Shown here: piece by piece, positions 39,401 to 64,000 of the stretch
Numbering within the stretch: position 1 is the first letter of the stretch
Layout of the letters: the number at the start of each line of letters is the position of its first letter
NCBI GenBank assembly: GCA_965248925.1
Contig: CBDFLE010000006.1
Location: 3,456,001-3,520,000 of the forward strand
Reading direction: 5' to 3'
DNA: 64,000 nt
DNA from: Candidatus Multivoradales bacterium
GTDB taxonomy: Bacteria > Acidobacteriota > Thermoanaerobaculia > Multivoradales > J023
Made by a program: the position numbers and the translations under genes
Notes under the pieces: generated by a model
The model's input: only the letters and a program-made list of their open reading frames with translations
What the model was told of the DNA's origin: nothing
Databases searched by the model: none

Positions 39401-40768
39401 AGCTTCGACAATTTCGGCAACATCCAGCAGCTATCAACACCCGGCTTCGCGGCTCTCAATCTCAACCCCAGCGCCACCACCAACCGCCTCGGCCTCTCGG
39501 GCGCTCAGTACGACGCGGCCGGCAATCTGACCGACATCACCCTCGGCAGCGAGAGCTTCGACTACGCCTTCGACGGCGCCAACATGATGAAGCACCTGCG
39601 CTCGAACACCGATCAAGCGCGGGTCTTCATCTACAACGCCAGCGACGAGCGGATCCTCACCTTCGACTGCTTCGGCCCCGGCGCCACCAGCACTTGCACC
39701 ACCCAGCCCGCCAGCCTCACCTGGACCCTACGCGGTCTCGGCAACGAAGTCCTGCGAGTCTACGATCAGCCAGCTGGCGGCGCCTTCAGCTGGAGTCGAG
39801 ACTACGTCCATCGCGGCGGGCAGCCCCTCGCCACCATCGAGCCCGAGGGTAGCGGTGGCGAGATGACGTCGCATCTCCATCTTGATCACCTGGGCACACC
39901 CCGGCAGATCACCCGAGGGGGTCAGCAGGTGGCGTTGCACAACTACTTTCCCTTTGGTCAAGAGGCGACCAGCGCGGAGGCTGACGAGATCCAGCTGAAA
40001 TTCACCGGTCATGAGCGGGACAAGACCGGGACCGGGGCGAGGAGCGAGCTGGACTACATGCATGCGCGGCATTGCAGTCCGGTGGTGGGGCGGTTCTTGA
40101 GTGTGGACCCGGCGAAGTCCGCCAAGCCCAGCGCGCCGGGAAGCTGGAACCGCTATTCCTATGCGGGGAACAACCCGATCAACGAGATCGACCCCAATGG
40201 GCGAGAAAGCCGTGCGGCGATGGCTCTCGAACAAGATATACAGCGCTTGATGCGGGGCGAGATCACCCAGGAGCAGTACATTGAGAACATCAATGCTCGG
40301 GGAATGGGAGCACTGTTTGCTGCCAGCCTTCTCTCGCCAGTCGACGAGACGACTCTTGTTGTCGCTGTTACTCGAAAAGCACTTCCTAGTGTTGGGTCAA
40401 AGCTGTCTGCTGTCTTTGCTCGACTTGGTAAGGTCTTTCAACGGGGATCGCGCGGAGGAGCAAAGGGGGCAGCGAGCGTTGACGACCTGCTTCGGGCTGG
40501 CCAGCAACTGGATAGAAATGGACTTAGCAGAGCTGGGCGCTCTCTACAGAAGCACGGAGACAGAGCAGACAGCGTTTTTCCACGGTCAACGGGCAATGCA
40601 GCTGCAAGGAACGATCAAGGACAACAGATCCTTGAAGAGATCTTGAACAGCTCGAACCAGACTACTCGGGCAAATCGCCTCGGTGGACGGGATATTTTCG
40701 ATACTGCCAGTGGGCGCGGAGTACGCTTCGACGGAGATGGGCAGTTCATAGGATTCCTAGATCCATGA
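36401..40768 (+). CDS. rhs: Rhs/YD-repeat polymorphic toxin, main body with core and C-terminal toxin
   Basis: Many YDxxGR repeats; core HLDHLGTPR...YFPFG...KFTGHERD...GRFLSVDP...PINEIDPNGR; tip AGRSLQKHG...GRGVRFD..GQFIGFLDP (predicted nuclease-type). Confidence 0.93.
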   Translation: MEDRFGNWINVRYANDGDWTLTDSQGRTHTVDFVGGRVATVRLEAFGSQSNSTFLFQYRTETLERQFGFRPGCVPIAEHTLTTQVLDRVVLPDGSFYEMDYLTVDNLLSGGLSKLRLPTGGAYGYDYQLFPFQTQLADLFHAPDWGTVARGVKSKHLFLDDGDTTPYATWSYTYDTANPQAPGDPLGHPCFHSMKVTDPLGFETVGYFSTVGANNRWSYGLPYTYCDPISGSFSEAGPFLSQELFDAGGVKLRSIFVEFDSDGRDAGNYNEKAHRLRYRKETFHDDGGKVREVTFSDFDGLGHFRTMTTGGSFGAADVRTSSTTYNANPDDSSIDPATDLVLPSHNARWILETWDEQSVSEGGTTEKAEFCFSSTTGFLERRRQLAGSSRQSRDVVSLLTSTDGFVTGERVYGGDTQNLGTGSLCSLGLSGPTYRTDHVYASGSLRKSTAVDCTGTAILTLADYDIDSDTGLVATSRDAAGLGTSFTYDRLGRLTGQRPAELGWTQWTYTLPTTANPSLAPKLTEQQCQPFQTSCSGTDLMSFREHRYDGLGRRLQETVRIPIANAGQTELWHRYTTWNPRHWKTDESVWTTASAAGESRRTTYLAYDRFGRPGRVKPPEQPATFFTYQGDRVQTRRFKVQLTSGQQDTYVTEIMDGQGRLAEVCEGSSAAWSGSCGGGGLLTRYSYDDGGRLTKVCQNLSGSTCGQTRLFSYDGRGFLLSETHPEIGPSGNGRIDYRFDAGGNATSKDLIGSTAFDLSFDFDAAGRLIRVLESSNGAGSTPRLQKQFRYARTNSGSDHRAGKLVQTVRHNWVDIQSPLAPEPGSLDVKLSESFRYTGRQGLMSEKQTRYQFFAGNYAFTTGFAFDTQGNLSQLDYPSCQHADGGCATNDPQRTVNFNYEKGMLRSVPGFANNLTYQSGGMLHQLAHSDGVVDSQEVSSLNGLARPHQLTTSAGWSSGNFAYDGAGNISAIGNLAYRYDRLGRLISGQTSVGATLFTQTASFDNFGNIQQLSTPGFAALNLNPSATTNRLGLSGAQYDAAGNLTDITLGSESFDYAFDGANMMKHLRSNTDQARVFIYNASDERILTFDCFGPGATSTCTTQPASLTWTLRGLGNEVLRVYDQPAGGAFSWSRDYVHRGGQPLATIEPEGSGGEMTSHLHLDHLGTPRQITRGGQQVALHNYFPFGQEATSAEADEIQLKFTGHERDKTGTGARSELDYMHARHCSPVVGRFLSVDPAKSAKPSAPGSWNRYSYAGNNPINEIDPNGRESRAAMALEQDIQRLMRGEITQEQYIENINARGMGALFAASLLSPVDETTLVVAVTRKALPSVGSKLSAVFARLGKVFQRGSRGGAKGAASVDDLLRAGQQLDRNGLSRAGRSLQKHGDRADSVFPRSTGNAAARNDQGQQILEEILNSSNQTTRANRLGGRDIFDTASGRGVRFDGDGQFIGFLDP

Positions 40769-41019
40769 AGCGGGATGAGTTCTCAGCTGGCCATTTCAGC
40801 GTGATGATTGCCAGCGATCTGGATCACGAGAAGGTTTACGCAGAGATCTACTGTGATGACAAGTTTGTGGCGCTCGTGAGCCAGGAGCATGGCCTTGAGC
40901 ACAAAATGTTAGAGGTGCCAGGGCCTGGGCTTGTGGAAGAACAAATCTCTCGGGAGGTGGATCTCAAGGGTTTTCAGCACGCTCTTGAGCTAGCCGCGAG
41001 AAAGCTGCACGGCGAGTAG
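40765..41019 (+). CDS. Putative immunity protein for the main Rhs tip
   Basis: Small acidic ORF with ATGA overlap directly after the toxin. Confidence 0.8.
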   Translation: MKRDEFSAGHFSVMIASDLDHEKVYAEIYCDDKFVALVSQEHGLEHKMLEVPGPGLVEEQISREVDLKGFQHALELAARKLHGE

Positions 41020-41057
41020 GCCGCGTTGGCCAACCTTTGACAGTAGCTCGCCATCAT

Positions 41058-41084: not shown

Positions 41085-41462
41085 TCACTGGTGGAGCACT
41101 TCTTCGATCTGGTGCTTCTTGATGTAGGCGTCGATAAGGGAGGTGACGACGTGGCGATCATCGTCGCTCATCCGCTCGACCGCTTCGAACTGGCGTAGCA
41201 ACTCCCGATCCCGCAAGGCAGCCCCACGGGCTGCATCCCCATCGAGATCATCCCGCAGTAGAAAATCGATCGAGACGTCGAGAACATCGGCGAGCCTGAC
41301 GGCAGTTTCGGCGTTGGGCATGGCTTGGCCAATCTCATACTTGCCTACATGGCGACCGTGGATGCCGACCCGTTTGCCGAACTCGTCCTGGGACCATCCG
41401 CGCTCTTTGCGCAGCTTGCGGAGCTTCTGGCCGAAGCTGGGGGCGTCTGTAGTCATCTCCAT
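41085..41462 (-). CDS. XRE-family repressor (type A)
   Basis: FGQKLRKLRKERGWSQDEFG...KYEIGQAMP...LADVLDVSIDFLL. Confidence 0.9.
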   Translation of the reverse strand: MEMTTDAPSFGQKLRKLRKERGWSQDEFGKRVGIHGRHVGKYEIGQAMPNAETAVRLADVLDVSIDFLLRDDLDGDAARGAALRDRELLRQFEAVERMSDDDRHVVTSLIDAYIKKHQIEEVLHQ

Positions 41463-41667
41463 CCGTTGCCTCTCGCTATGAATCTCCGCAAATTCTACAG
41501 CGCAAGCACCTCGCCATCAAGGGAAATGGAGTCTCGGGGCAGAGTTCTTACTTGTAAAACCACGTCTATGCGCTATATAATCGAGTCAATCGATGCGTAT
41601 GGTGCTCGCTATGAAAACGAGCCCATCAGCTACAACAGAAAGACAGAATCTTGCCGGAGGATCTCCA

Positions 41668-41964
41668 ATGACCGAGCACAAGCTAACGATCTCCGCCCTG
41701 TACCGCCCCGGCTGGCACGTCTTGCCCAGATCGGCACAGCTGCCATTGCTGCAAGTGGTCGGCCCATGGCTCCAGGACGCTGGCTTCTACCCCGGTGCGC
41801 GAGTGCGGATCGATGTGGTGGGTGACGGGCGTTTGGTGGTGACGCGGGTGGAAGAGGGCGAGGAGGAGAGGGAAATGCAGCCGGTGGTGTGGGTGCCGGC
41901 GGATCAGATCGGCCGGATTGATGAGGTCTCGGCAAGTCGCCTGGCAGGAGCAGCCTGTGTCTGA
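41668..41964 (+). CDS. SymE-like (AbrB-fold) protein 1
   Basis: PLLQVVGPWLQDAGFYPGARVRIDV...RLVVT; GGAGG RBS. Confidence 0.75.
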   Translation: MTEHKLTISALYRPGWHVLPRSAQLPLLQVVGPWLQDAGFYPGARVRIDVVGDGRLVVTRVEEGEEEREMQPVVWVPADQIGRIDEVSASRLAGAACV

Positions 41965-42181
41965 GTCGAGAGCTGAGCGGCATCTGACGATCTCTACCCT
42001 GCACGAGCCCCGCGCACCGCACTACATCAACGGTCCGTGCTCGGTGCGGCTTGTGCCGTTTGTGCGGATGCGGGGGGCTTGGCTGGAAGCAGCGGGGTTT
42101 CGCTGTGGGGAGCGGCTGCGGGTGGAGGTCGAGCAGGATCGTTTGGTGCTTACTCCGGTGGGATCGGAGGCGGCACGGTGA
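41957..42181 (+). CDS. SymE-like protein 2
   Basis: PFVRMRGAWLEAAGFRCGERLRVEVEQDRLVLT; GTG start after AGGAG. Confidence 0.8.
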   Translation: MSESRAERHLTISTLHEPRAPHYINGPCSVRLVPFVRMRGAWLEAAGFRCGERLRVEVEQDRLVLTPVGSEAAR

Positions 42182-45100
42182 GCAGGATTCCGGAAGCGGA
42201 AGTGGAGCGACTAAAGCGAGAAGTATCGGTGGAACGCCTGGTCCTGGCCCGCGGTGTAGAGCTGAAACGGCACGGGGCGGACCTGCTGGGGCTGTGTCCG
42301 TTTCACGACGACCACGAGCCGTCGCTGGTGATCTCGCCAAAGAAGAACCTGTGGCACTGCCTGGGCGCCTGCCAGGCGGGTGGCTCGGTGATCGATTGGG
42401 TGATGCGAGATCGCGGGGTGTCGTTTCGCCACGCGGTCGAGCTGCTGCGCTCGGATCTGCCGGCGGCGGCGGTCACTGAGGCGCGGCCTTCGGCGCCGGC
42501 TCTGCCTTCGCCGGTGGTGGCGGACGTCGAGGACGCGGAGTTGCTCGGCCAGGTCGTCGGCTACTACCACGAGGCTTTGAAGGAGGGCCCGGAGGCGCTG
42601 GCTTATCTGGAGAGCAGAGGGCTGAAGCACCCGGAGATGATCGAGCATTTCAGGCTTGGCTTCGCCAACCGGACGCTGGGCTATCGACTGCCATCGAAGC
42701 AGCTGAAGGCGGGTAAGGAGATGCGGGGTCGATTGCAGAAGCTCGGCGTGCTGCGCAAGTCGGGTCATGAGCACTTCAACGGCTCGATCGTCTTTCCGGT
42801 TTTCGATTCAACAGGCCAGGTGGTGGAGATCTACGGGCGCAAGATCACACTAAATCTTCGCAAGGGGACGCCCTTGCATCTCTATCTGCCGGGTCCACAT
42901 CGAGGGATCTTTAATGCGGAAGCTCTGGTGGCCTCGACCGAGATCATCCTCTGCGAGTCGCTGATCGACGCTCTGACTTTCTGGTGTGCGGGTTACCGTA
43001 ACGTCACCAGCGCCTACGGCATCCAGGGTTTCACCGCGGAGATGCTGGCAGCCTTCGGTGGCCACGGAGTCGAGCGGGTGCTGATCGCCTACGACCGTGA
43101 CGATGCCGGCGAGAAGGCCGCCGGGAAGCTGGCCGAGAAGCTGGTGGGTGCCGGGATCGACTGCTACCGAATCCAATTTCCGCGTGGCATGGATGCCAAC
43201 GAGTACGCGCTGAAGGTGACCCCGGCGGCGAAGTCGCTGGGGGTGGTGATCCGCAAAGCACAGTGGCTCGGCAAAGGCAAGCCGCCGGGCGTGAAACCGG
43301 GGTTTGGGCCAACAGCTGGCCTAATCGCGCCAACGGTACGGCCAAACACAGCCGCAGAGGCGGTAATGGCTCCACCAACAGAGCAGCTGACATCATCGAA
43401 TACCGCCGGAGAGGCGGTATTGGCACTGCCCGCCCCGGCCGAAGCCTCCCCACTGCCCGCACCGCCTCCGCCAGATATGCCGGCTGAGGTGCGCGACCAG
43501 GAGGTGGTCTTGTCGCTCGGCGATCGCCGCTACCGCATTCGCGGTCTGCCGAAGAATCTGGCCTACGACGTGCTCAAGGTCAACGTCCTGGCGTCGCGGG
43601 GCGACGCCTTCCACGTCGACACTTTCGATCTCTACGCGGCGCGGCCGCGGGCGGTGTTTCAGCGGGCGGCAGCCGCTGAGCTGGGGGTCGAGGAGCAGGT
43701 GGTCAAGAAGGATCTGGGCAAGGTGCTGCTGAAGCTCGAGGAGCTGCAGGACGAGCAGATCCGCTCAGCACTCGAGCCGCAGTCGACGGCGGTGGAGCTG
43801 TCAGAGGGAGAGAAGGAAGCGGCGCTTGAGCTGCTGCGCTCACCAGATCTCTTGGTGCGCATCCTCGCGGACTTCGAGCGCTGCGGGGTGGTGGGCGAGG
43901 AGGTCAACAAGCTGATGGGCTACCTGGCGTCGACCTCGCGTTTCCTGGAACGGCCGCTGGCGGTGGTGGTGCAGTCCAGCTCAGCGGCCGGTAAGTCGGC
44001 GCTGATGGAGGCGGTGCTGTCGCTGATGCCAGGTGAGCAGCAAGTGAAGTACTCGGCGATGACCGGGCAATCGCTGTTCTACATGGGCGAAACGGATCTG
44101 CAGCACAAGATCCTGGCGATCGTCGAGGAGGAGGGGGCCGAGCGGGCTAGCTACGCCTTGAAGCTGCTTCAGTCGGAGGGCGAGCTGACGATTGCCTCGA
44201 CCGGCAAGGATGCTTCAACGGGCAAGCTGGTGACGCACGAGTACCACGTCGAAGGGCCGGTGATGATCTTCTTGACGACCACGGCAATCGACATCGATGA
44301 AGAGCTTTTGAATCGCTGCTTGGTGCTCTCGGTGGACGAGGCGCGAGAGCAGACGCGGGCGATTCACCGGCTGCAGCGGCAGCGGCGGACGCTGGAGGGG
44401 CTACTCTCGCGCACCCGGCGCGACGGGGTGATGGCGCTGCACCAGAACGCGCAGCGGCTGCTGCGGCCGCTGGCGGTGGTCAATCCCTTTGCTCCGGAAC
44501 TTACCTTTCTCGATACGCAAATCCGCACCCGCCGGGACCACGAGAAGTACCTGACGCTGATCGACGTGATTGCTCTTTTGCATCAATACCAGCGAGAGGT
44601 GAAGCTGGCGGTGGTCGACGGGCGAGAGGTGGAGTACGTCGAAGTGGTGGCCACAGACATCGAGACAGCCAACCGCCTGGCGCACGAAGTCTTGGGGCGC
44701 TCGCTCGATGAGCTGCCGCCGCAGACGCGGCGCCTGCTGGGGCTGATCGACGAGATGGTCAGCGAAGCCTGTGAGGCGCTGGCGATGGATCGGCCGGACT
44801 ACCGTTTCAGCCGGCGGGCGGTGCGCGAGCACACCGGCTGGGGCAATACGCAGCTGAAGCTGCACCTACGCCGTCTTGAGGAGTTTGAGTATCTGCTGGT
44901 GCATCAGGGCGGGCGGGGGCAGAGCTTTGTCTACGAGCTGGTTTACGTGGCCAGCGACGAGCCGGAGCGGCCGCGACTGCCGGGGCTGATCGAGGTCGAA
45001 ACACTCAGGTACGACGAAAAGAAGTCGGGGTCTGAAGCTGAGAAGTCGGGGCCAAGTCGGCCCCAAGTCGGGGGGGTGTCGGGGGGTGGTCGGGGTGCAG

Positions 45101-45243
45101 TTTCCCAAGCAGAATCAACAACTTCGGCCGGAAATCGTGGAGTTTCGGCAAAAAACGCATATAAGGGGGTGCGAGAAAACGGCCCGTCATGTCGTAAATC
45201 TGGGCCTCGTACCGGCGGCTCGGCGGCGGTCGAGGGGGCCTGA
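42178..45243 (+). CDS. CHC2 zinc-finger / TOPRIM primase fused to a P-loop ATPase (replication protein)
   Basis: CPFHDD...WHCLGAC; ESLIDA and YDRDDAG; Walker A-like SSSAAGKS; GTGA coupling to the SymE-like gene. Confidence 0.9.
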   Translation: MSRIPEAEVERLKREVSVERLVLARGVELKRHGADLLGLCPFHDDHEPSLVISPKKNLWHCLGACQAGGSVIDWVMRDRGVSFRHAVELLRSDLPAAAVTEARPSAPALPSPVVADVEDAELLGQVVGYYHEALKEGPEALAYLESRGLKHPEMIEHFRLGFANRTLGYRLPSKQLKAGKEMRGRLQKLGVLRKSGHEHFNGSIVFPVFDSTGQVVEIYGRKITLNLRKGTPLHLYLPGPHRGIFNAEALVASTEIILCESLIDALTFWCAGYRNVTSAYGIQGFTAEMLAAFGGHGVERVLIAYDRDDAGEKAAGKLAEKLVGAGIDCYRIQFPRGMDANEYALKVTPAAKSLGVVIRKAQWLGKGKPPGVKPGFGPTAGLIAPTVRPNTAAEAVMAPPTEQLTSSNTAGEAVLALPAPAEASPLPAPPPPDMPAEVRDQEVVLSLGDRRYRIRGLPKNLAYDVLKVNVLASRGDAFHVDTFDLYAARPRAVFQRAAAAELGVEEQVVKKDLGKVLLKLEELQDEQIRSALEPQSTAVELSEGEKEAALELLRSPDLLVRILADFERCGVVGEEVNKLMGYLASTSRFLERPLAVVVQSSSAAGKSALMEAVLSLMPGEQQVKYSAMTGQSLFYMGETDLQHKILAIVEEEGAERASYALKLLQSEGELTIASTGKDASTGKLVTHEYHVEGPVMIFLTTTAIDIDEELLNRCLVLSVDEAREQTRAIHRLQRQRRTLEGLLSRTRRDGVMALHQNAQRLLRPLAVVNPFAPELTFLDTQIRTRRDHEKYLTLIDVIALLHQYQREVKLAVVDGREVEYVEVVATDIETANRLAHEVLGRSLDELPPQTRRLLGLIDEMVSEACEALAMDRPDYRFSRRAVREHTGWGNTQLKLHLRRLEEFEYLLVHQGGRGQSFVYELVYVASDEPERPRLPGLIEVETLRYDEKKSGSEAEKSGPSRPQVGGVSGGGRGAVSQAESTTSAGNRGVSAKNAYKGVRENGPSCRKSGPRTGGSAAVEGA

Positions 45244-46316
45244 TGCCGCGCCGTGGCGAGCGCAAGATCCGCCTCTTGCCGGGCAATCCAACCGACCCTC
45301 GGGGCTTCGCGGTGATGGCGGGTCAGTACCTGGAGTGGATGGCGATCAAGAACTACTCTCCACGAACCGTTGAGAACCGGCATCTATACCTCTCGTTTCT
45401 CATCGCATGGTGTGAAGAGCGTGGGGTGTCGCGGCCGTCGGAAGTGACCAAGCCGATCCTGGAGCGCTACGCCAGGTGGCTCTACCACTACCGCAAGCCT
45501 GGGGACGGGCGGCCGCTGTCTTTCCGGGCTCAGCACTCGCGGCTGGTGCCGGTAAGGGCCTTCTTCAAATGGGCGGCTCGGGCCAACCACCTGCTCTACA
45601 ACCCGGCCTCGGAGCTGGAGCTACCGAAGCTGGAGCACCGGCTGCCGGCGGCGGTGCTGACCGCCTCTGAAGCCGACCAGGTGCTCAACCAGCCCGACAC
45701 CACGGAGCCGCTCGGGATGCGCGACCGAACAATCCTTGAAGTCTTCTACTCCACGGGCATGCGCCGGGCTGAGCTGATCGGCCTCGGCCGTTACGATCTC
45801 GACATCGAGCGCGGGACGGTGATGGTGCGCCAGGGCAAGGGTAGGAAAGATTGGATGATCCCGATCGGCGAGCGGGCGTTGGCCTGGATCGATCGCTACG
45901 TCACTGCGGTACGGCCGTCGCTGGTGGTCGAGCCGGACGGCGGGCCGCTCTTTCTCACCAACCAGGGGACGCCGTTTGCGCCGTCGCGAATGACTCAGCT
46001 GGTGCGCGGCTACGTGCTCGCCGCCGATCTCGGCAAGTCGGGCGCTTGCCATCTCTTCCGCCACACGATGGCGACGCTGATGCTCGAAGGTGGTGCGGAT
46101 ATCCGCTTCATTCAGCAGATGCTCGGCCATGCCAAGCTGGAGACGACGCAGATTTACACTCAGGTATCGATCCGCAAACTGAAGTCGATCCACTCGGCAA
46201 CCCATCCGGGCGCGAAGCTAGGGCGGCGGGTGGCACCGCCGACAGAAGAAGACGGCAGCGATGAAGTGACCGCCGAGGACTTACTCGATGTAGTCGAGAC
46301 CGAGGCGGAGGACTGA
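45243..46316 (+). CDS. XerC/XerD-like tyrosine integrase
   Basis: Catalytic set TGMRRAEL, GKG, HLFRH, LGH, TQIYT; TGATG coupling. Confidence 0.93.
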   Translation: MPRRGERKIRLLPGNPTDPRGFAVMAGQYLEWMAIKNYSPRTVENRHLYLSFLIAWCEERGVSRPSEVTKPILERYARWLYHYRKPGDGRPLSFRAQHSRLVPVRAFFKWAARANHLLYNPASELELPKLEHRLPAAVLTASEADQVLNQPDTTEPLGMRDRTILEVFYSTGMRRAELIGLGRYDLDIERGTVMVRQGKGRKDWMIPIGERALAWIDRYVTAVRPSLVVEPDGGPLFLTNQGTPFAPSRMTQLVRGYVLAADLGKSGACHLFRHTMATLMLEGGADIRFIQQMLGHAKLETTQIYTQVSIRKLKSIHSATHPGAKLGRRVAPPTEEDGSDEVTAEDLLDVVETEAED

Positions 46317-46721
46317 CCCCCGCCCGAAGCGGTCCGGGTCTGCGGGTCCCGCGCTGCGGCCGGCTGCGCCGTCCTCCGTTCGCGGGCCACGCAGCCCTCG
46401 GCAGTATTTTTTCGTCACCCCAGCCCGCCCCGGCCCGAGCATCTGCGATCCACCACCTGAGCCCTCCGATCACCGGCCCGGCGCGGGGCTTCAAGTAGTC
46501 CAAGAGAAGACTCTTCGAAAGCTCACCCCAAGCTCCGCCGGGGCGTGTGTCCCTCCGGTCGCTGCGCTCCCTCCGGGCACGGGCCAGCCGCTCCGCAAGC
46601 CGCGCGCCACCTGGGTCCCTCCTCGGACCTCCCAGGTGTCACGCGGCTTGCATGGGTCGCTGTCCGATAGTGCGCGCCCTATCCGACCTGGCCCTCACAC
46701 GCCCCGGCTCCGGGCCTACGG

Positions 46722-48283: not shown

Positions 48284-48287
48284 GAGT

Positions 48288-56040: not shown

Positions 56041-56050
56041 GAGTATACGG

Positions 56051-56404: not shown

Positions 56405-56426
56405 TTGTCGTGCCGTCGGGGTGTGA

Positions 56427-56708
56427 GTGGTGACACCGCTTCGAATCCAGGAGCACGGCGCTCACCTTCAAACGTCCGGCCTCTCATCAATCCGGAAGTC
56501 AGAACTCGCGGTAGCGGTGTCGCCGGGGGTTTCGGCTGTGGTAGCGTGGCGGCTTCTGCACTCAGCAGCTTCCTACATGGTTTCGGTCAACTACCGGCCC
56601 GAGGCGGGGGAAATCCTGTGCTATGAGGGCCAGTGCTACCGGCTGGAGCCGGTGCGGGGTGGCCTCCTGCTGCTGCGTCCGGTGATTGGCAGTGAGGCCG
56701 CCAGCTAA
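56427..56708 (+). CDS. Hypothetical protein, allele of 48640-48951 (5' end altered)
   Basis: Shares HSAASYMVSVNYRPEAGEILCY...GSEAAS. Confidence 0.45.
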   Translation: MVTPLRIQEHGAHLQTSGLSSIRKSELAVAVSPGVSAVVAWRLLHSAASYMVSVNYRPEAGEILCYEGQCYRLEPVRGGLLLLRPVIGSEAAS

Positions 56709-56715
56709 GCCGCGA

Positions 56716-57087
56716 TCAGGGGGCAGCGGTGGCTGATTCCTGGGTGACGAGGTCAACGAACTTCTTCTTGGTCAGCAGGCCATCGATGATCTTGATGACG
56801 GCAGCCTTTTCCTCGGGGTCGAGGCGTTCGAGCAGCTCCATGCGCTGGGCGAGAGGCTGATCTTCGAGCCGGACGGGTCGAAACTCTCCCTCTTCTTCAT
56901 TCAGCAGGAAGTCGGTCGTCACCTCGAACTCTGAGGCGAGCTTGCGCAGCAGGTCAATGGACGGCTGGTAGCGGCCGTTCTCAAGCCGGCTGATGTGGCC
57001 AGTGCTAACCCCGAGGCGCTTGCCGAGTTCGCCCTGGGCCCACCTGTGCTCAGCGCGGAGCTTTCGGATCTTCTCTTGAAGGGTCAT
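56716..57087 (-). CDS. XRE-family repressor (type B, unit 3)
   Basis: Identical protein to 48959-49330. Confidence 0.9.
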   Translation of the reverse strand: MTLQEKIRKLRAEHRWAQGELGKRLGVSTGHISRLENGRYQPSIDLLRKLASEFEVTTDFLLNEEEGEFRPVRLEDQPLAQRMELLERLDPEEKAAVIKIIDGLLTKKKFVDLVTQESATAAP

Positions 57088-57295
57088 TGATCGTCGATTT
57101 CCTGGCCTCTTGGGCCGAATTTCCACTAATTCTAAGCGCATACGGTGATTTGCGCAAGTAATTCGGGCGAGAACGTACGCTCTGCTTGACGATGATAGGC
57201 GCATGCGTTATTATTTGTGCATGAGAGCAGCAAGGTGCCGTGGTCGCAACCGTTAACTGCTCCAAGCGTGATGCGAAAACTGGAGGGAAATCTCA

Positions 57296-57592
57296 ATGAC
57301 CGAGCACAAGCTAACAATCTCCGCCCTGTACCGCCCCGGCTGGCACGTCTTGCCCAGATCGGCACGGCTGCCATTGCTGCAGATTGCAGGTCCGTGGCTC
57401 CAGGACGCTGGCTTCTACCCTGGTGCGCGAGTGCGGGTCGACGTGGTGGGCGAAGGGCGCCTGGTGGTGACGCGGGTGGAAGAAGGCGAGGAAGAGAGGG
57501 AAATGCAGCCGGTGGTGTGGGTGCCAGCGGATCAGATCGGCCGGATTGATGAGGTCTCGGCAAGTCGCCTGGCAGGAGCAGCCTGTGTCTGA
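57296..57592 (+). CDS. SymE-like protein 1 (unit 3)
   Basis: Identical to the unit 2 copy. Confidence 0.75.
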   Translation: MTEHKLTISALYRPGWHVLPRSARLPLLQIAGPWLQDAGFYPGARVRVDVVGEGRLVVTRVEEGEEEREMQPVVWVPADQIGRIDEVSASRLAGAACV

Positions 57593-57809
57593 GTCGAGAG
57601 CTGAGCGGCATCTGACGATCTCTACCCTGCACGAGCCCCGCGCACCGCACTACATCAACGGTCCGTGCTCGGTGCGGCTTGTGCCGTTTGTGCGGATGCG
57701 GGGGGCTTGGCTGGAAGCAGCGGGGTTTCGCTGTGGGGAGCGGCTGCGGGTGGAGGTCGAGCAGGATCGTTTGGTGCTTACTCCGGTGGGATCGGAGGCG
57801 GCACGGTGA
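57585..57809 (+). CDS. SymE-like protein 2 (unit 3)
   Basis: Identical to the other copies. Confidence 0.8.
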   Translation: MSESRAERHLTISTLHEPRAPHYINGPCSVRLVPFVRMRGAWLEAAGFRCGERLRVEVEQDRLVLTPVGSEAAR

Positions 57810-60800
57810 GCAGGATTCCGGAAGCGGAAGTGGAGCGACTAAAGCGAGAAGTATCGGTGGAACGCCTGGTCCTGGCCCGCGGTGTAGAGCTGAAACGGCA
57901 CGGGGCGGACCTGCTGGGGCTGTGTCCGTTTCACGACGACCACGAGCCGTCGCTGGTGATCTCGCCAAAGAAGAACCTGTGGCACTGCCTGGGCGCCTGC
58001 CAGGCGGGTGGCTCGGTGATCGATTGGGTGATGCGAGATCGCGGGGTGTCGTTTCGCCACGCGGTCGAGCTGCTGCGCTCGGATCTGCCGGCGGCGGCGG
58101 TCACTGAGGCGCGGCCTTCGGCGCCGGCTCTGCCTTCGCCGGTGGTGGCGGACGTCGAGGACGCGGAGCTACTCGGCCAGGTCGTCGGCTACTACCACGA
58201 GGCTTTGAAGGACAGCCCGGAAGCGCTGACGTACCTGGAGAGTCGGGGCTTGAAGCACCCGGAGATGATCGAGCATTTCCGGCTTGGCTTCGCCAACCGG
58301 ACGCTGGGCTATCGTCTGCCATCGAAGCAGCTGAAGGCGGGCAAGGAGATCCGGGGTCGATTGCAGAAGCTCGGGGTGCTGCGCAAGTCGGGTCATGAGC
58401 ACTTCAATGGCTCGATCGTCTTTCCGGTCTTCGCGGGTGGCCAGGTGGTGGAGATCTACGGGCGCAAGATCACACTGAATCTTCGCAAGGGGACGCCCTT
58501 GCATCTCTATCTGCCGGGTCCGCATCGAGGGATCTTCAATGCGGAAGCTCTGGTGGCCTCGACCGAGATCATCCTCTGCGAGTCGCTGATCGACGCCCTG
58601 ACCTTCTGGTGTGCGGGCTACCGCAACGTCACCAGCGCCTACGGCATCCAGGGTTTCACCGAGGAGATGCTGGCAGCCTTCGGTGGCCATGGAGTCGAGC
58701 GGGTGCTGATTGCCTACGACCGGGACGATGCCGGCGAGAAGGCCGCCGGGAAGCTGGCCGAGAAGCTGGTGGGTGCCGGGATCGACTGCTACAGAATCCA
58801 CTTTCCGCGCGGCATGGACGCCAACGAGTACGCGCTGAAGGTGACCCCGGCGGCGAAGTCGCTGGGGGTGGTGATCCGCACAGCACAGTGGCTCGGGAAA
58901 GGCAAGGTGCCCGAGGTGAAACCGGGGTTCGAACCCATAGTGGGCGCATTGGCACCACAGGTAGAGCAACCGACACCGCCGAATACACCCGGAGAGGGTG
59001 TATTGGCGCCACCCGCGCCGGCCAAAGCCTCGCCGCTGCCGGCTCCACCACCGCCGGATGTGCCGGCTGAGGTGCGTGAGCAGGAGGTAGTGCTGTCGCT
59101 CGGCGATCGCCGCTACCGGGTCCGAGGTCTGCCGAAGAATCTGGCCTACGACGTGCTCAAGGTCAACGTCCTGGCGTCGCGGGGCGACGCCTTCCACGTC
59201 GACACTTTCGATCTCTACGCGGCGCGGCCGCGGGCGGTGTTTCAGCGGGCGGCAGCCGCTGAGCTGGGGGTCGAGGAGCAGGTGGTCAAGAAGGATCTGG
59301 GCAAGGTGCTGCTGAAGCTCGAGGAGCTGCAGGACGAGCAGATCCGCTCGGCACTCGAGCCGCAGTCGACGGCGGTGGAGCTGTCAGAGGGAGAGAAGGA
59401 AGCGGCGCTTGAGCTGCTGCGCTCACCAGATCTCTTGGCGCGAATCCTGGAGGACTTCGAGCGCTGCGGGGTGGTGGGTGAGGAGGTCAACAAACTCATG
59501 GGCTATATGGCGGCCACCTCGCGTTTCCTAGAACGGCCCCTAGCGGTGGTGGTGCAATCCAGCTCGGCGGCCGGCAAGTCGGCGCTGATGGAGGCGGTGC
59601 TGGCACTGATGCCAGGTGAGCAGCAAGTGAAGTACTCGGCGATGACCGGGCAATCGCTGTTCTACATGGGCGAGACGAACCTACAGCACAAGATCTTGGC
59701 GATCGTCGAAGAGGAAGGCGCCGAGCGAGCGAGCTACGCCTTGAAACTGCTTCAGTCAGAAGGAGAGCTGACCATCGCGTCGACCGGCAAGGATGCTTCA
59801 ACGGGCAAGCTGGTGACGCACGAGTACCACGTCGAAGGGCCGGTGATGATCTTCTTGACGACCACGGCGATCGACATCGATGAAGAACTGCTGAATCGGT
59901 GTCTGGTGCTGTCGGTAGACGAGGCGCGGGAGCAGACTCGGGCGATTCACCGGCTGCAGCGAGAGCGGCGAACGCTCCAGGGGCTGTTGTCGCGCACCCG
60001 ACGCGACGGGGTGATGGCATTGCACCAGAACGCGCAGCGGCTGCTGCGGCCGCTGGCGGTGGTCAATCCCTTCGCTCCCGAGCTGACCTTTCTCGATACG
60101 CAGATCAGAACCCGTCGAGACCACGAGAAGTACCTGACCCTGATCGACGTGATTGCTCTTTTGCATCAATACCAGCGAGAGGTGAAGCTGGCGGTGGTCG
60201 ACGGGCGAGAGGTGGAGTACGTCGAAGTGGTGGCCACAGACATCGAGACAGCCAACCGCCTGGCGCACGAAGTCTTGGGGCGCTCGCTCGATGAGCTGCC
60301 GCCGCAGACGCGGCGCCTGCTGGGGCTGATCGACGAGATGGTCAGCGAAGCCTGTGAGGCGCTGGCGATGGATCGGCCGGACTACCGTTTCAGCCGGCGG
60401 GCGGTGCGCGAGCACACCGGCTGGGGCAATACGCAGCTGAAGCTGCACCTACGCCGTCTTGAGGAGTTTGAGTATCTGCTGGTGCATCAGGGCGGGCGGG
60501 GGCAGAGCTTTGTCTACGAGCTGGTTTACGTGGCCAGCGACGAGCCGGAGCGGCCGCGACTGCCGGGGCTGATCGAGGTCGAAACACTCAGGTACGACGA
60601 AAAGAAGTCGGGGTCTGAAGCTGAGAAGTCGGGGCCAAGTCGGCCCCAAGTCGGGGGGGTGTCGGGGGGTGGTCGGGGTGCAGTTTCCCAAGCAGAATCA
60701 ACGACTTCGGCCGGAAATCGTGGGGTTTCGGCAAAAAACGCATATAAGGGGGTGCGAGAAAACGGCCCGTCATGTCGTAAATCTGGGCGTCGTACCGGCG

Positions 60801-60826
60801 GCTCGGCGGCGGTCGAGGGGGCCTGA
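57806..60826 (+). CDS. CHC2/TOPRIM primase-ATPase (unit 3)
   Basis: Same domains; shorter, diverged Pro-rich linker. Confidence 0.9.
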   Translation: MSRIPEAEVERLKREVSVERLVLARGVELKRHGADLLGLCPFHDDHEPSLVISPKKNLWHCLGACQAGGSVIDWVMRDRGVSFRHAVELLRSDLPAAAVTEARPSAPALPSPVVADVEDAELLGQVVGYYHEALKDSPEALTYLESRGLKHPEMIEHFRLGFANRTLGYRLPSKQLKAGKEIRGRLQKLGVLRKSGHEHFNGSIVFPVFAGGQVVEIYGRKITLNLRKGTPLHLYLPGPHRGIFNAEALVASTEIILCESLIDALTFWCAGYRNVTSAYGIQGFTEEMLAAFGGHGVERVLIAYDRDDAGEKAAGKLAEKLVGAGIDCYRIHFPRGMDANEYALKVTPAAKSLGVVIRTAQWLGKGKVPEVKPGFEPIVGALAPQVEQPTPPNTPGEGVLAPPAPAKASPLPAPPPPDVPAEVREQEVVLSLGDRRYRVRGLPKNLAYDVLKVNVLASRGDAFHVDTFDLYAARPRAVFQRAAAAELGVEEQVVKKDLGKVLLKLEELQDEQIRSALEPQSTAVELSEGEKEAALELLRSPDLLARILEDFERCGVVGEEVNKLMGYMAATSRFLERPLAVVVQSSSAAGKSALMEAVLALMPGEQQVKYSAMTGQSLFYMGETNLQHKILAIVEEEGAERASYALKLLQSEGELTIASTGKDASTGKLVTHEYHVEGPVMIFLTTTAIDIDEELLNRCLVLSVDEAREQTRAIHRLQRERRTLQGLLSRTRRDGVMALHQNAQRLLRPLAVVNPFAPELTFLDTQIRTRRDHEKYLTLIDVIALLHQYQREVKLAVVDGREVEYVEVVATDIETANRLAHEVLGRSLDELPPQTRRLLGLIDEMVSEACEALAMDRPDYRFSRRAVREHTGWGNTQLKLHLRRLEEFEYLLVHQGGRGQSFVYELVYVASDEPERPRLPGLIEVETLRYDEKKSGSEAEKSGPSRPQVGGVSGGGRGAVSQAESTTSAGNRGVSAKNAYKGVRENGPSCRKSGRRTGGSAAVEGA

Positions 60827-61902
60827 TGCCGCGCCGTGGCGAGCGCAAGATCCGCCTCTTGCCGGGCAATCCAACCGACCCTCGGGGCTTCGCGGTGATG
60901 GCGGGTCAGTACCTGGAGTGGATGGCGATCAAGAACTACTCTCCACGAACCGTTGAGAACCGGCATCTATACCTCTCGTTTCTCATCGCATGGTGTGAAG
61001 AGCGTGGGGTGTCGCGGCCGTCGGAAGTGACCAAGCCGATCCTGGAGCGCTACGCCAGGTGGCTCTACCACTACCGCAAGCCTGGGGACGGGCGGCCGCT
61101 GTCTTTCCGGGCGCAGCACTCGCGGCTGGTGCCGGTGCGGGCTTTCTTCAAGTGGGCGACTCGGGCCAACCACCTGCTCTACAACCCGGCCTCGGAGCTG
61201 GAGCTGCCGAAGCTGGAGCACCGGTTGCCGGCGGCGGTGCTGACCGCCTCGGAAGCCGACCAGGTGCTCAACCAGCCCGACACCGCCGACCCACTCGGGA
61301 TGCGCGACCGGACGATCCTTGAAGTCTTCTACTCGACCGGCATGCGCCGGGCTGAGCTGATCGGCCTCGGCCGTTACGATCTCGACATCGAACGCGGAAC
61401 GGTGATGGTGCGCCAGGGCAAGGGGCGGAAAGACTGGATGATCCCGATCGGCGAGCGGGCGCTGGCCTGGATCGATCGCTACGTCACTGAGGTACGGCCG
61501 TCGCTGATGGTCGAGCCGGACGGCGGGACGCTCTTTCTCACCAACCAGGGGACGCCGTTTGCTCCGTCGCGAATGAGTCAGCTGGTGCGCGGCTACGTGC
61601 TCGCCGCCGATCTCGGCAAGTCGGGCGCTTGCCATCTCTTCCGCCACACGATGGCGACGCTGATGCTCGAAGGTGGTGCGGATATCCGCTTCATTCAGCA
61701 GATGCTCGGCCATGCCAAGCTGGAGACGACGCAGATTTACACTCAGGTATCGATCCGCAAACTGAAGTCGATCCACTCGGCAACCCATCCGGGCGCGAAG
61801 CTAGGGCGGCGGGTGGCACCGCCAGCGGAAGAAGCGAAAGACGGCGGCGAAGTGGCGGCCGAAGATCTGCTCGACACTATGGAGGCCGAAGCGGAGGACT
61901 GA
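60826..61902 (+). CDS. Tyrosine integrase (unit 3)
   Basis: Catalytic residues intact; diverged acidic tail. Confidence 0.93.
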   Translation: MPRRGERKIRLLPGNPTDPRGFAVMAGQYLEWMAIKNYSPRTVENRHLYLSFLIAWCEERGVSRPSEVTKPILERYARWLYHYRKPGDGRPLSFRAQHSRLVPVRAFFKWATRANHLLYNPASELELPKLEHRLPAAVLTASEADQVLNQPDTADPLGMRDRTILEVFYSTGMRRAELIGLGRYDLDIERGTVMVRQGKGRKDWMIPIGERALAWIDRYVTEVRPSLMVEPDGGTLFLTNQGTPFAPSRMSQLVRGYVLAADLGKSGACHLFRHTMATLMLEGGADIRFIQQMLGHAKLETTQIYTQVSIRKLKSIHSATHPGAKLGRRVAPPAEEAKDGGEVAAEDLLDTMEAEAED

Positions 61903-62576
61903 CCCCCTCCCCCCACCCGAAGCGGTCCGGGTCTGCGCGTCCCGCGTTGCGGCCGGCTGCGCCGTCCTCCGTTCGCGGGCCACGCAGCCCTCGGCAGTAT
62001 TTTTTCGTCACCCCAGCCCGCCCCGGCCCGAGCATCTGCGATCCACCACCTGAGCCCTCCGATCACCGGCCCGGCGCGGGGCTTCAAGTAGTCCAAGAGA
62101 AGACTCTTCGAAAGCTCACCCCAAGCTCCGCGAGCCTGCGAAGGTCAGCGGCTTCGGAAGCACGCCCCGCTCTTGGCCTCCTTGCCGAGATCCACCGACT
62201 TGCACTGCGACGGCTCGGCCCGGCCCCGTCCGCCCCCTCAAGGGGGCTCCCCATCCTCCTCCCAAGACCCGCCCTGCGTCGTGGCCTCCGTACCCTGCGC
62301 GCGGCGCCCTGCGGTCGCCGTGCTCGGCTCCGGCCCCGCCGCCACCACGCCCCCAACGTGCAGATTGGTTTGGCGGCTGCCCTCTGTGCCGCCGGCACCA
62401 AACTGCCGGAAAGACCCGCGCTCGCTCCGACGACCAGCCCAACGAAAACGACCTAAGAAAACACCCACTGCCCGAAGAAAGCGGCCTAAGAAAACCGCAT
62501 CCCGCCTCCGCACCAACCACCCTTCCTCCTTTAGCCGCTGTCTTCGAGCGCCACCCGCGGCGTAGAATGGCCCGGC

Positions 62577-63638
62577 ATGAGGCAGGCAGCTAAAGGAAGA
62601 AGCACTTGGACGATGGCGCTCGGGCTGGTCGTCGCGCTCCTGGCGGTGACGATGCCGGCAACAGCGATCGCGCCGATCTCCGAGTCGAGCTACGCCGAAA
62701 CTCGCCTCTGGACCTTCGAGCACCAAGACCCCGCCGGCAGTAGGGCCGAGCGAGGCTTAAGTAGAACAGGCATAGAGGGTTACCAGCTCTCAAGCTGGAA
62801 ACCGCGTCGGGCTGTCCCCTTCACCCGAGGCGGACAGCAGGTGGCGTTGCACGGCTACTTCCCGTTTGGTCAGGAGGCGACCAGCGCCGCACAAGATGAG
62901 GTTGTGCTGAAGTTCACCGGGCACGAGCGAGACAAGACCGGGACCGGGGTGAGGAGCGAGCTGGACTACATGCATGCGCGGCATTGCAGTCCGGTGGTGG
63001 GGCGGTTCTTGAGTGTGGATCCATCTCTGGGTAGCCGGTCCTCACCACAGAGTTGGAATCGCTTCTCTTACGTCAGCAACAGTCCAATCAACCAGGTAGA
63101 CCCGGACGGAAGGCTTGGGTTTCTGGTAACTGCATTTCTTGGCGGAGTCGTAGATGTTGGGATTCAAATTGCGAGCAACGCGCTTTCAGGGGAAGAGCTC
63201 ACAACAGGCGTAGCCGGGGCTTTCGTCACCGGAGCAGTGGCTGGTGCCACAGGTCTTGGGCTATTGAAGGTGGCTGGTAGGGGAGCGAAGCTCGTAGGAG
63301 CCGTTAGAAATGCAAAGAAACTGAAGAAGTCAACTGCTGCTGCTGGCGCACCAAGAGCGGGCGCAAGGGGAACAAGGGTTGTTGATGACGCCATTTCAGG
63401 CTTGCGTGCTGGGCGAAGTCCCGGTGTCAGAGTGGTTGAGTCGGCTGATGACTTGGAGGGCTTGTTTGGCCGCCTCAGTCGCGGCGGCACATCAGTCGAA
63501 GGCACAAAGTTCCCAGGCCAGCTTGTGAAGCTGCCCGATGGTACGACGGTCGGATTGCGCGCCGGCTCGAAGTCCGGGGGGCCAACCATCGACATCAAGC
63601 TGCCTGATGGAACCTTGCGCAAGGTCCATGTCCAATAA
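62577..63638 (+). CDS. Leader fused to Rhs core and toxin tip 3 (candidate displaced original rhs 3' end)
   Basis: Core diverges right after TCACCCGAGG (HGYFPFGQEATSAAQDEVVLKF); tip LPDGTTVGLRAGSKSGGPTIDIK...KVHVQ (predicted nuclease-type). Confidence 0.85.
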   Translation: MRQAAKGRSTWTMALGLVVALLAVTMPATAIAPISESSYAETRLWTFEHQDPAGSRAERGLSRTGIEGYQLSSWKPRRAVPFTRGGQQVALHGYFPFGQEATSAAQDEVVLKFTGHERDKTGTGVRSELDYMHARHCSPVVGRFLSVDPSLGSRSSPQSWNRFSYVSNSPINQVDPDGRLGFLVTAFLGGVVDVGIQIASNALSGEELTTGVAGAFVTGAVAGATGLGLLKVAGRGAKLVGAVRNAKKLKKSTAAAGAPRAGARGTRVVDDAISGLRAGRSPGVRVVESADDLEGLFGRLSRGGTSVEGTKFPGQLVKLPDGTTVGLRAGSKSGGPTIDIKLPDGTLRKVHVQ

Positions 63639-64000
63639 TGAGCTTTCGAAACTGCGTCGATGATGTCTTGAAACGTGGCTTGGATGACTGGATCCAAGCC
63701 GCTGAGATCGCTTCGATAGCCCGGACCGCCGGCAAAGCAACGAGCGAAGACGGAGTCCGTGACCTCTCACTCCGGATTTTTCGGGAGCTACTCGGGCGAA
63801 ACTTGATGGATGTCGGGATGGTTACGGAGACAGGATTCACGGCTTGGGAGATTCCTGTCGATCAGGCCCTTCAGCGGATCGAAAGTGATTGGCGAGCCTT
63901 GCCCAAGGGGCCGGATCTCGGCGAGATTTGCTGGCTCAACCTCACCGAGGAAGGGTCCGTGCAGGCGGACGAGCTTTGGTCGAAGAGCAGGTCCTCTTGA
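63638..64000 (+). CDS. Putative immunity protein for tip 3
   Basis: TAATG coupling to the toxin; GLDDWI...FTAWEIPVDQALQRIESDW...ICWLNLTEEG. Confidence 0.8.
   Translation: MSFRNCVDDVLKRGLDDWIQAAEIASIARTAGKATSEDGVRDLSLRIFRELLGRNLMDVGMVTETGFTAWEIPVDQALQRIESDWRALPKGPDLGEICWLNLTEEGSVQADELWSKSRSS

Follow-up and report, generated by a model that had tools for sequence, protein, structure and literature searches.

How an rhs gene comes by a new toxin end is the question raised by the DNA analysed here, a 64,000-nt stretch (the window) from a Candidatus Multivoradales bacterium (assembly GCA_965248925.1, contig CBDFLE010000006.1, positions 3,456,001 to 3,520,000 of the forward strand). Few bacterial genes vary as much as those for Rhs and other polymorphic toxins, and the picture of displacement of their ends has so far been without a vehicle or an enzyme. 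In the window, three units of about 7.6 kb stand head to tail within an rhs gene, each with an Rhs tip, a presumed immunity gene and a backbone that includes a primase and a tyrosine integrase. An initial annotation of the stretch had proposed that an integrase-bearing element enters rhs at a short core and supplies an in-frame tip together with its immunity gene. The comparative evidence supports this proposal, and site-specific, in-frame replacement of the Rhs toxin by a mobile element is, at a probability of roughly 0.8, well supported in silico. The support comes from identical units in different rhs loci of one genome, from three lineages that keep the arms of the site while their spacers match different targets, from Rhs cores that are co-oriented with the backbone across phyla, from an empty and an occupied E. 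coli locus in which the crossover falls within 14 nt, and from a complete circular 11.3-kb plasmid that carries the backbone with two toxin tips.

Three tandem units are delimited by a short core within rhs

The 10-mer TCACCCGAGG occurs in four exact copies in the window, all on the plus strand, at 39909, 47451, 55208 and 62821; the number expected by chance is 0.29, and 0 of 100 shuffled sequences reached four. The copies delimit three units with spacings of 7542, 7757 and 7613 nt, as the initial annotation had described, and the order of genes that it gave for a unit (Rhs tip, immunity gene, XRE gene, two symE-like genes, primase, integrase, leader) was borne out by the open reading frames (ORFs) and by profile searches. 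The backbone of unit 2 is 98.8% identical to that of unit 1, and that of unit 3 is 95-96% identical. The junctions and the second and third units are as follows; the genes of unit 1 are given further below.

39909..39918, plus strand: core of junction 1, attL-like (rhs body, core, tip 1)
47440..47467, plus strand: attP-like core site, GCTGTCCCCTT / CACCCG / AGGGGGTCAGC, with 9 of 11 arm positions complementary
47451..55207, plus strand: unit 2, with the tip 2 ORF at 47207-48283, ORFs at 48288-48647 and 48640-48951, an XRE gene at 48959-49447 (minus strand), the primase gene at 49908-53111, the integrase gene at 53111-54184 and then the leader
55208..62820, plus strand: unit 3, with the tip 3 ORF at 54964-56040, ORFs at 56051-56404 and 56427-56708, an XRE gene at 56716-57204 (minus strand), the primase gene at 57665-60826, the integrase gene at 60826-61902 and then the leader
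62821..63638, plus strand: core of junction 4, attR-like, and tip 4, which is likely the original 3' end of rhs

When the four junctions were aligned, the similarity broke off sharply, exactly at the 10-mer. To the left of the core, junction 1 reads rhs body (ending in CACCCCGGCAGA) and junctions 2 to 4 read one identical leader (ending in GGGCTGTCCCCT); to the right, junctions 1, 2 and 3 are the same over about 100 nt (beginning with GGGTCAGC), and junction 4 (beginning with CGGACAGC) diverges from its first base. This is the abrupt attL / attP-like / attR pattern that had been read from the letters alone. One detail of that reading did not stand: CGGACAG as opposed to GGGTCAG to the right of the core does not cleanly mark host against element, since these are synonymous codon variants that are also found on element-borne tips, other units in the genome having CGGACAG, TGGTCAG or TGGACAG as their right arms. 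Positions 39909 and 62821 are both the second of a codon, counted from the ORF starts, and a join of 39908 to 62821 would therefore stay in frame and rebuild an rhs gene, as had been claimed; the joined sequence reads PRQITRGGQQVALHGYFPFG and runs into tip 4. The view that this last, displaced tip is the original end was not contradicted, in that no additional unit was found in the contig sequence beyond position 64000. In the window, in the rest of the genome and in E. coli, the element is bounded by direct repeats of a short core that is also present in the empty target.

The source genome (7.98 Mb in 6 contigs, here G000, in whose coordinates the window is C6:3456001-3520000) has 8 full-length paralogs of the window rhs that are 93-97% identical. 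Four of the eight hold units at the same site, 12 units in all: 3 in the window, 7 on contig C5, 1 on C4 and 1 at C6:1342651. These account genome-wide for 12 leader/core junctions and 6 rhs-body/core junctions, and the boundary between leader and core is identical in the 12 units. A unit in the C5 array matches unit 1 of the window throughout 7552 nt (100% identity), and the first unit of that array is also the same, apart from a 2.9-kb insertion. Comparison of the window with the empty paralog at C6:1743528 gave 0 mismatches over the 800 nt that precede the core and 20 over the 100 nt that follow it. The seven-unit array (C5:921908-984654) has insertions of 1.6-2.9 kb inside some of its units, one of them in a primase gene, and insertion sequence (IS) elements were found within some units. 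The genome appears to hold an unusually large Rhs arsenal, with 85 matches to the model of the Rhs-associated core, many of them in ORFs of 1600-5100 aa.

The junction resembles the core of a tyrosine-recombinase site

Two diverged lineages of the element are inserted elsewhere in other rhs genes of G000. One of them, on contig C4, has an integrase 91.5% identical to that of the window and lies in the middle of a third rhs gene of about 2750 aa; its cargo is 2.4 kb of the 3' half of rhs. A relative was found in G016, a genome from another genus of the family, whose integrase and primase are 82% and 72% identical to those of the window. There, four tandem units lie in a quite different Rhs gene (DUF6531 and ten RHS repeats), inserted in the linker that precedes the toxin, at 114 codons from the stop.

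The sites of these lineages share one design. The window site, GCTGTCCCCTT / CACCCG / AGGGGGTCAGC, has arms that are complementary at 9 of 11 positions (P=0.005 against random positions); the G016 site, GCTGTTCCCCT / GTCCCA / AGGGGAACAGC, is complementary at 11 of 11 (P=0.0007), and the site of the C4 lineage, GCTATCCCCTT / TCGCCG / AGGGGGGCACC, at 7 of 11. Among the three, the inverted arms are conserved and the 6-nt spacer varies, each spacer being that of its own target, and the three insertions are at three different places in three unrelated rhs genes. The identity of the rhs side and of the leader side starts at the edge of the spacer, to within 1 nt. Sites of the Xer, Cre and lambda-family tyrosine recombinases behave in this way, with conserved arms and a spacer that matches the target. 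Conserved arms with a spacer that co-varies with the target are not what the random ends of captured rhs fragments would be expected to give, and the junction looks like the core of a tyrosine-recombinase site.

A DNA motif, AACCGC[GA]T[CT][AG]G, lies 13-22 nt to the left of the crossover in the window and recurs in lineages of Acidobacteriaceae; its reading frame differs among them, an indication of a site at the level of DNA. A strict scan of the 79 loci described below for inverted repeats of the CCCCT type matched G016 alone. The arm-spacer-arm pattern was found, among 24 genomes of the family, in G000, in G016 and in one match that is unexplained, a lone GGGCTATCCCCCTGGGGGCAGGGG in G010 (C712:12169-12192, locus L181), a genome in which the primase search found nothing.

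An empty and an occupied locus in E. coli

DNA of the xerC-primase type was present in 56 of 5426 complete E. coli genomes, at 200 places that are all chromosomal (median, 4 per genome); compared with the proteins of the window, identity is 47% for the integrase and 52% for the primase. In strain D7, a locus beside pptA-yddH-nhoA-nar, which we take to be the classic RhsE region, contains in order an RHS gene, a tip with a HYD1 ADP-ribosyltransferase, an immunity gene, SymE/HTH genes, the primase gene, xerC, a short 'RHS core' remnant, two small genes and ISEc1. In JNE151685, which has the same flanking protein accessions, an intact RHS gene runs straight into the tip and immunity gene of that remnant, with no element between them. 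The empty site (attB) was aligned with the two ends of the occupied one.

attB against attL: left 150 columns, 128 match, 3 mismatch, 1 gap; right 100 columns, 61 match, 30 mismatch, 9 gap
attB against attR: left 150 columns, 53 match, 72 mismatch, 25 gap; right 100 columns, 91 match, 0 mismatch, 0 gap

All that the junctions have in common is GACCCGATAGGGCT, 14 nt that encode DPIGL, a position that is the textbook boundary between Rhs core and tip. The site (GTCCCGAT / GACCCG / ATAGGG) resembles that of the window (GTCCCCTT / CACCCG / AGGGGG).

One further E. coli locus, in M23314 (L273, 13278-13365), contains a cassette of a tip and Imm8 that has only a leader-like arm of about 70 nt and the 14-nt core, and no backbone. 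It is bounded by cores and sits between rhs and the element's own tip, and in layout, though in layout only, it is integron-like. The arrangement suggests that cassettes may be able to move without a backbone.

Distribution of the element

An alignment search with the primase among species-representative genomes identified at least 560 relatives, of which the 79 best loci were taken for tests of their neighbourhood; these belong to Acidobacteriota, Myxococcota, Gammaproteobacteria, Actinomycetota, Dormibacteraeota, Verrucomicrobiota and others. Examination of the two longest ORFs of at least 150 aa within 2.6 kb of the integrase with the NCBIfam model revealed an Rhs core downstream at 25 of 41 integrase ends (23 of them above the cut-off), or 20 of 35 loci. 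The match starts at about residue 1, 12-20 or 31-34 of the core model, depending on the lineage. Our own hidden Markov model (HMM) of the Rhs core matched 52 of the 79 loci, with 94 domains on the strand of the element and 0 on the opposite strand. Among units having at least 3 kb of sequence upstream, a core lies 0.7-4.5 kb upstream in 34 of 51, 12 of these in ORFs of at least 3 kb. The breaks are at TGKERD, ARYY or DYMHARYY according to lineage, each in frame with the leader.

In a second set, collected from metagenomes with the integrase as the seed, the primase gene immediately precedes the integrase gene in 32 of 32 loci, and 19 core domains are on the strand of the element and 0 on the other. 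The check proposed in the initial annotation, whether homologs of the integrase and primase border rhs cores, gave in both sets co-oriented cores across phyla (94/0 and 19/0 by strand). We conclude from these neighbourhoods that the element family is wider than its Rhs-linked members. Some members, G016 among them, join inside the toxin, and so no core is left to detect; at two metagenome loci that lack a downstream Rhs core (L263 and L219), ordinary host genes follow the integrase. Upstream in L219, in the position of cargo, is a DUF4329 protein (1445-2605), which hints at other types of toxin in the family. Locus L084, from an uncultured bacterium, has two integrase genes in a row in each unit (5688-7625 and 12967-14904) and a group II intron reverse transcriptase downstream of the array.

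Full-length homologs of the primase, 49-62% identical, are present in 42 records of PLSDB, whose hosts include Ralstonia (megaplasmids), Caballeronia, Janthinobacterium, Pseudomonas, Salmonella, Enterobacter, Providencia and Leptospira. Ralstonia solanacearum Po82 has an arrangement like that of the window, with an Rhs gene (1725 aa), small ORFs, an RstR-like repressor gene, primase and XerC genes, and an ORF with a YD repeat and an Rhs core; a gene for a XopP-family type III effector lies about 2 kb past the displaced tip on this megaplasmid (L269, 21381-23798). In Lonsdalea populi, a complete circular plasmid of 11,289 bp carries xerC, primase, HTH and SymE genes with an NTF2-fold immunity gene and an endonuclease toxin, alongside a further, incomplete unit that has an HNH toxin. 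At the start of each of the two toxin ORFs is the tail of an Rhs core (a weak match of 23 bits, below the cut-off). The plasmid has backbone and tips and no rhs body at all. It is the best sign in the sequences surveyed of an episomal state. Three of 44 whole metagenome contigs also close on themselves at unit length. A circular Shigella record of 8758 bp was considered as a free attP form and rejected; it holds both rhs-body/core and leader/core joints and looks like a chromosomal repeat that was closed up.

Genes of the unit and of the resident rhs

The backbone of unit 1 and its non-coding parts are as follows.

41085..41462, minus strand: XRE / RstR-family repressor (HTH_3, 2.2e-16; NF041951, 89.2 bits, cut-off 80)
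41492..41581: divergent pair of promoter-like sites between the XRE and SymE-like genes, facing away from each other
41593..42181, plus strand: two SymE-like (AbrB-fold) ORFs, 41593-41964 and 41918-42181 (PF08845, 1.3e-05 and 4.1e-12)
42037..45243, plus strand: DnaG-type primase with a P-loop domain, 1068 aa (zinc ribbon, DnaG_N, Toprim; Walker A SSSAAGKS)
45243..46316, plus strand: tyrosine integrase of the XerC subfamily (Phage_integrase PF00589, 3.7e-36; NF002331, 427.7 bits, cut-off 371)
46317..47206, plus strand: non-coding stretch of about 890 nt, with 26-nt direct repeats at 47067-47125 and AAACCGCATC at 47122
46595..46651: hairpin with 21-nt arms that are 90% complementary and a 15-nt loop, 280 nt after the integrase stop
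47207..47450, plus strand: leader (P arm), with an ATG and an ORF that begins like a signal peptide and shares the frame of tip 2; also at 54964-55207 and 62577-62820

The divergent pair comprises the only two promoter-like sites between 39900 and 47700. Homologs of the primase align from about residue 44, so its real start is probably near 42169. Its C-terminal part resembles clusters that bear PF27228 (score 0.98, which we treat as a lead), and a sequence search with this part gave no match in the PDB. In the translated integrase, the R, HxxR, H and Y motifs are visible by eye. It scored 100.9 bits against the model for integron integrases (TIGR02249, cut-off 265) and thus falls outside that group. 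A role in the resolution of chromosome dimers as XerC or XerD was also rejected, because the scores with TIGR02224 (220.9, cut-off 335) and TIGR02225 (215.6, cut-off 329.6) are both below the cut-off; the element integrase, at 14 or more copies per genome and always beside the primase, is unlike the single-copy housekeeping Xer proteins. The hairpin may be a candidate origin or binding site, and the region of one of its arms shows 77% complementarity with the right att arm (47455-47476). In the leader, the motif AAACCGCGTCGG is at 47429 and the arm GCTGTCCCCTT abuts the crossover. The leader encodes a motif (SYAETRLW.FE ... IEGY) that is kept in G016, G011 and further lineages, where its frame is always that of the displaced tip. 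The SymE-like genes and the repressor probably constitute an addiction module.

We also considered a phage or phage satellite and set it aside, given that the matches in PHROGs are to the repressor, primase and integrase only. Of the 80 best loci in the IMG/VR viral collection, one proved to be a true relative, and in three phage records at most 33% of the primase is covered, at 27-28% identity.

The resident gene, the first and last immunity genes and tip 1 are as follows.

35606..36388, plus strand: 5' part of rhs, with a signal-peptide-like N-terminus, terminating at the TGA at 36386-36388
36401..39908, plus strand: rhs body (B arm), with RHS/YD repeats up to the junction (Pfam RHS_repeat, TIGR01643), 93-97% identical to seven paralogs
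39909..40768, plus strand: tip 1, Rhs core domain with DP...DPNGR (TIGR03696 at residues 1182-1267 of the ORF) and a C-terminal toxin
40765..41019, plus strand: presumed immunity gene 1, 84 aa, directly after tip 1
63638..64000, plus strand: presumed immunity gene 4, continuing past the end of the window

The initial annotation was mistaken in taking ORF 36401-40768 for the full-length rhs: the gene actually starts near 35690, with a signal peptide, and is divided by an in-frame TGA at 36386-36388 into ORFs 35606-36388 and 36401-40768. At this position the seven paralogs all read TGG, and they keep the frame open for about 1400 aa from the signal peptide. Contigs from public sequencing runs that span the site read G, with differences typical of the paralogs, and the window's own allele is in none of them; the stop, which the contigs leave unconfirmed, is either real or an assembly error. 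The longer ORF encodes the RHS/YD shell repeats (PF05593, 7e-18, and TIGR01643).

All four tips match the Rhs-associated core model TIGR03696 at 57-60 bits, have the DP...DPNGR or DPDGR motifs and variable ends, and are each followed by small ORFs. Tips 2 and 3 are near-identical (268 of 276 aa), with the differences at the C-terminal end and with diverged immunity genes; tip 4 shares its first 170 or so residues with them, and tip 1 diverges after the DP motif. The toxin of tip 1 resembles the CdiA-CT and MafB cassettes (atlas scores of 0.94 and 0.91, a lead only), and immunity gene 1 had no match in Pfam or NCBIfam. Directly 5' of rhs is a gene for an efflux pump of the AcrB/AcrD/AcrF family (32337-35492), in whose place other rhs paralogs carry an ORF that ends in ...QWTETCASASC.

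A model for in-frame toxin replacement

The observations can be assembled into the following model. The backbone of the element would consist of the XRE/RstR repressor, the SymE-like genes, the replication protein with primase and P-loop domains and the XerC-subfamily integrase, and its cargo would be the 3' end of an rhs gene, that is, the last part of the Rhs core, the toxin and the immunity gene. In the circular form, the end of the leader would meet the start of the cargo and so create the attP core, with 11-nt inverted arms and a 6-nt overlap; attB, inside the rhs coding sequence, would provide the same overlap and the right arm. The integrase would exchange strands within the overlap, after which the resident rhs body would run in frame into the tip and immunity gene of the element, and the old tip would be displaced downstream, behind the leader. 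Because the site would be rebuilt at each insertion, further elements, or copies that re-integrate, could stack as a tandem array, and recombination between any two direct cores should remove units and switch the tip that is expressed. Beyond what the sequences show, the model supposes that this integrase is the catalyst, that units are excised and probably replicate on their own as episomes, that the repressor exerts control, and that the immunity and SymE-like genes favour retention.

One could envision a broader role, in which the family would serve bacteria at large as a counterpart of the integron that works at the level of proteins, and would be the chief natural vehicle by which Rhs C-terminal ends are displaced. 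Lineages would use the start of the core domain, TGKExD, ARYYDP, DPxGL, the toxin linker or even the middle of the body; cassettes without a backbone, made up of a tip, an immunity gene and a short leader arm, would be moved in trans; toxins would be switched by core-to-core recombination; and what would keep the element in place is immunity to the toxin fired by kin, together with the cHTH-SymE module. We offer this extension tentatively, at somewhat under even odds.

Alternative explanations

A number of observations weigh against site-specific replacement. The premature TGA makes the function of the window rhs copy doubtful, as this copy does not have an intact full-length reading frame. 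With our own HMM, an Rhs core was found downstream at only 9 of 41 integrase ends in the integrase-seeded metagenome set. At 7 of the 11 junctions examined, the inverted repeat does not exceed what chance would give, and in the E. coli site the arms are complementary at 7 of 11 positions (P=0.18). The exact core is present in one of the four empty paralogs of G000. In the D7 locus (L272, near 26065-26085 and 39322-39342), both joints of rhs to tip are one G short, so that the frame ends in TAG at the core, and RefSeq marks these rhs genes as frameshifted; an in-frame version of the joint is present in another record. Not every copy of the element, therefore, re-arms the host toxin. Finally, public runs examined as Logan contigs contained no joints of excision or of circles, which with 31-letter words are indistinguishable from paralogous junctions, so that this result favours neither side. 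In the four runs that have the stretch, the contigs over 36000-41200 are 80-1264 nt long and end at repeats, and the sole loose contig end at 39909 is the leader arm, as on contig C5.

The remaining contrary observations are those that favour an explanation by homologous recombination only. The units would then enter by a RecA-dependent, Campbell-type single crossover in a carried 3' fragment of rhs, arrays would grow by unequal crossing-over, and the integrase would do other work, such as resolution of multimers or integration elsewhere. To the right of the core, the tips share 200-540 nt of homology at 85-94%. Between the window and the C5 array, the identity begins 650 nt to the left of the core, in the rhs body, and continues through the unit, which indicates that the 3' end of rhs and unit 1 were copied together, by duplication or gene conversion, and not by integration at the core. 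In the occupied paralog at C6:1342651, one of the four, junction 1 reads TCACGCGCGG, with 2 of 10 core positions changed, and shows no step in identity. The diverged lineage at C6:3620866/3629597 is flanked by a duplication of 2635 nt at 98% identity and lacks an inverted repeat (5 of 11 positions, P=0.89), as a Campbell-type homologous insertion would give; the C4 lineage is likewise flanked by 2432 nt at 95.7%. Adjacent units are often twins (the near-identical units 1/2, 4/5 and 6/7 on C5; units 1/2 and 3/4 in G016), which unequal crossing-over fits as well as re-integration does.

We think nonetheless that recombination of this kind is unlikely to be the whole explanation. In E. coli, the switch between alleles is contained in 14 nt, and yet the flanking sequences agree at no more than about 67% of positions (61 of 91 aligned); a switch so confined is not explained by homologous recombination. 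The junctions in G016 have just 11-19 nt in common to the right, which is too short for RecA-type recombination, and that genome has a perfect 11-nt inverted repeat. The C4 and window lineages share their arms and have similar cores even though they occupy different rhs genes at positions that are not homologous, which random ends would not produce. The integrase gene invariably adjoins the primase gene, and the two always lie in the orientation of the tip. Homologous recombination clearly also moves or copies units, as a second process that acts on the same repeats.

Alternatively, the locus might be an ordinary array of orphan tips in which an unrelated mobile element landed and was amplified along with them, with no functional link between the two. 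Classic orphan tips with 185-1100 nt of rhs body and no element do occur in G000, and some units contain IS elements. Nevertheless, we regard this as very improbable, given the recurrence of the same backbone-tip order and strand across phyla, the leader/core boundary common to the 12 units and the circular plasmid with backbone and tips and no rhs body. That a single unit or circle was wrongly expanded into tandem copies by the assembly is scarcely credible, for although repeats of 7.6 kb are hard to assemble and each junction interrupts the public contigs, the three units show differences of 1-5% from one another and have different tips and immunity genes, arrays are also present in G016 and in finished E. 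coli chromosomes, and short contigs from X1 and X2 (146 and 126 nt, with no differences) extend from the rhs body over the start of the core, albeit with only 30 and 10 letters to the right of it, fewer than the 31 asked for a bridge.

Comparison with known systems

If site-specific toxin replacement is correct, the elements would provide both what carries a toxin and its antidote between cells and the recombinase that splices the toxin in frame onto a resident delivery shell, and they may account for how rhs genes acquire new warheads. They would represent a new class of target for integrative elements, a site inside a coding repeat family, with a new logic of cargo, and a natural system in which protein modules are fused through site-specific recombination. 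The question is open to test in E. coli, where empty and occupied alleles of one locus exist. Work by Koskiniemi and co-workers in 2014 is reportedly associated with Rhs C-terminal displacement and orphan-tip arrays. Among open-access full texts, without their supplements, we found no description of integrase-borne elements that insert in rhs, and an earlier account is possible.

Integrons have one intI per array, promoterless cassettes of whole genes, attC hairpins, and expression of the cassette in first position. The elements described here are like integrons in having a tyrosine recombinase, sequential insertion at a fixed site by an expression signal, and arrays that build up. They differ in that the cassette is the 3' part of a gene that is fused in frame, the site is in coding DNA, and most units have an integrase and a replication gene of their own. 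In islands at tRNA genes, and in the lambdoid phage 21 and e14 in icd, attB is intragenic, and a replacement 3' end from the element restores the same function; here, the function would be changed to that of a new toxin, and the matching immunity gene is brought along. P4-like satellites, phage-inducible chromosomal islands, and CTXphi/RS1 with RstR combine an integrase, an initiator with a primase domain and a Cro/CI-type repressor, and form tandem arrays at one site. The logic of the backbone is the same, whereas capsid-hijacking genes are not evident in our units and the target is rhs rather than a tRNA gene or dif.

Among published toxin and immunity loci, the nearest to involve a recombinase are the recombinase-associated acquired interbacterial defence (rAID) loci of Bacteroidales, for which the passages of PMC12247911 describe a tyrosine recombinase beside arrays with conserved intergenic motifs; the arrays treated there differ from ours in consisting of orphan immunity genes for defence, with one recombinase per array and no rebuilding of a toxin gene. 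XerC/D genes beside polyimmunity loci appear in the part of Zhang et al. 2012 (PMC3482391) that deals with such loci, and integrase-like genes associated with Rhs in bee-gut bacteria, their role left open, in the corresponding part of Steele et al. 2017. Closest in gene content is the cHTH-SymE(-SymE)-Prim-Hel neighbourhood in 'mobile islands' of Kawano et al. 2007 (PMC1891008), where RHS and haemagglutinin neighbourhoods are drawn; section 13 of that paper takes the neighbourhood as evidence that SymE is a toxin and the cHTH-SymE pair as a toxin-antitoxin module, and for the same set of genes it names no integrase, attachment site, tandem units or toxin replacement. For the rhs locus itself, the account in Jackson et al. 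2009 (PMC2935791) is of a full-length rhs followed by displaced tips, each with its immunity gene, and of new tips that replace old ones at the core; its passages on displacement invoke homologous recombination without a vehicle and name integrons as a precedent. The layout of displaced tips and immunity genes is the same in our arrays, in which the displaced tips bring with them an integrase, a replication gene and a defined junction. The novelty is the combination of two known kinds of system, integrative elements and Rhs C-terminal displacement.

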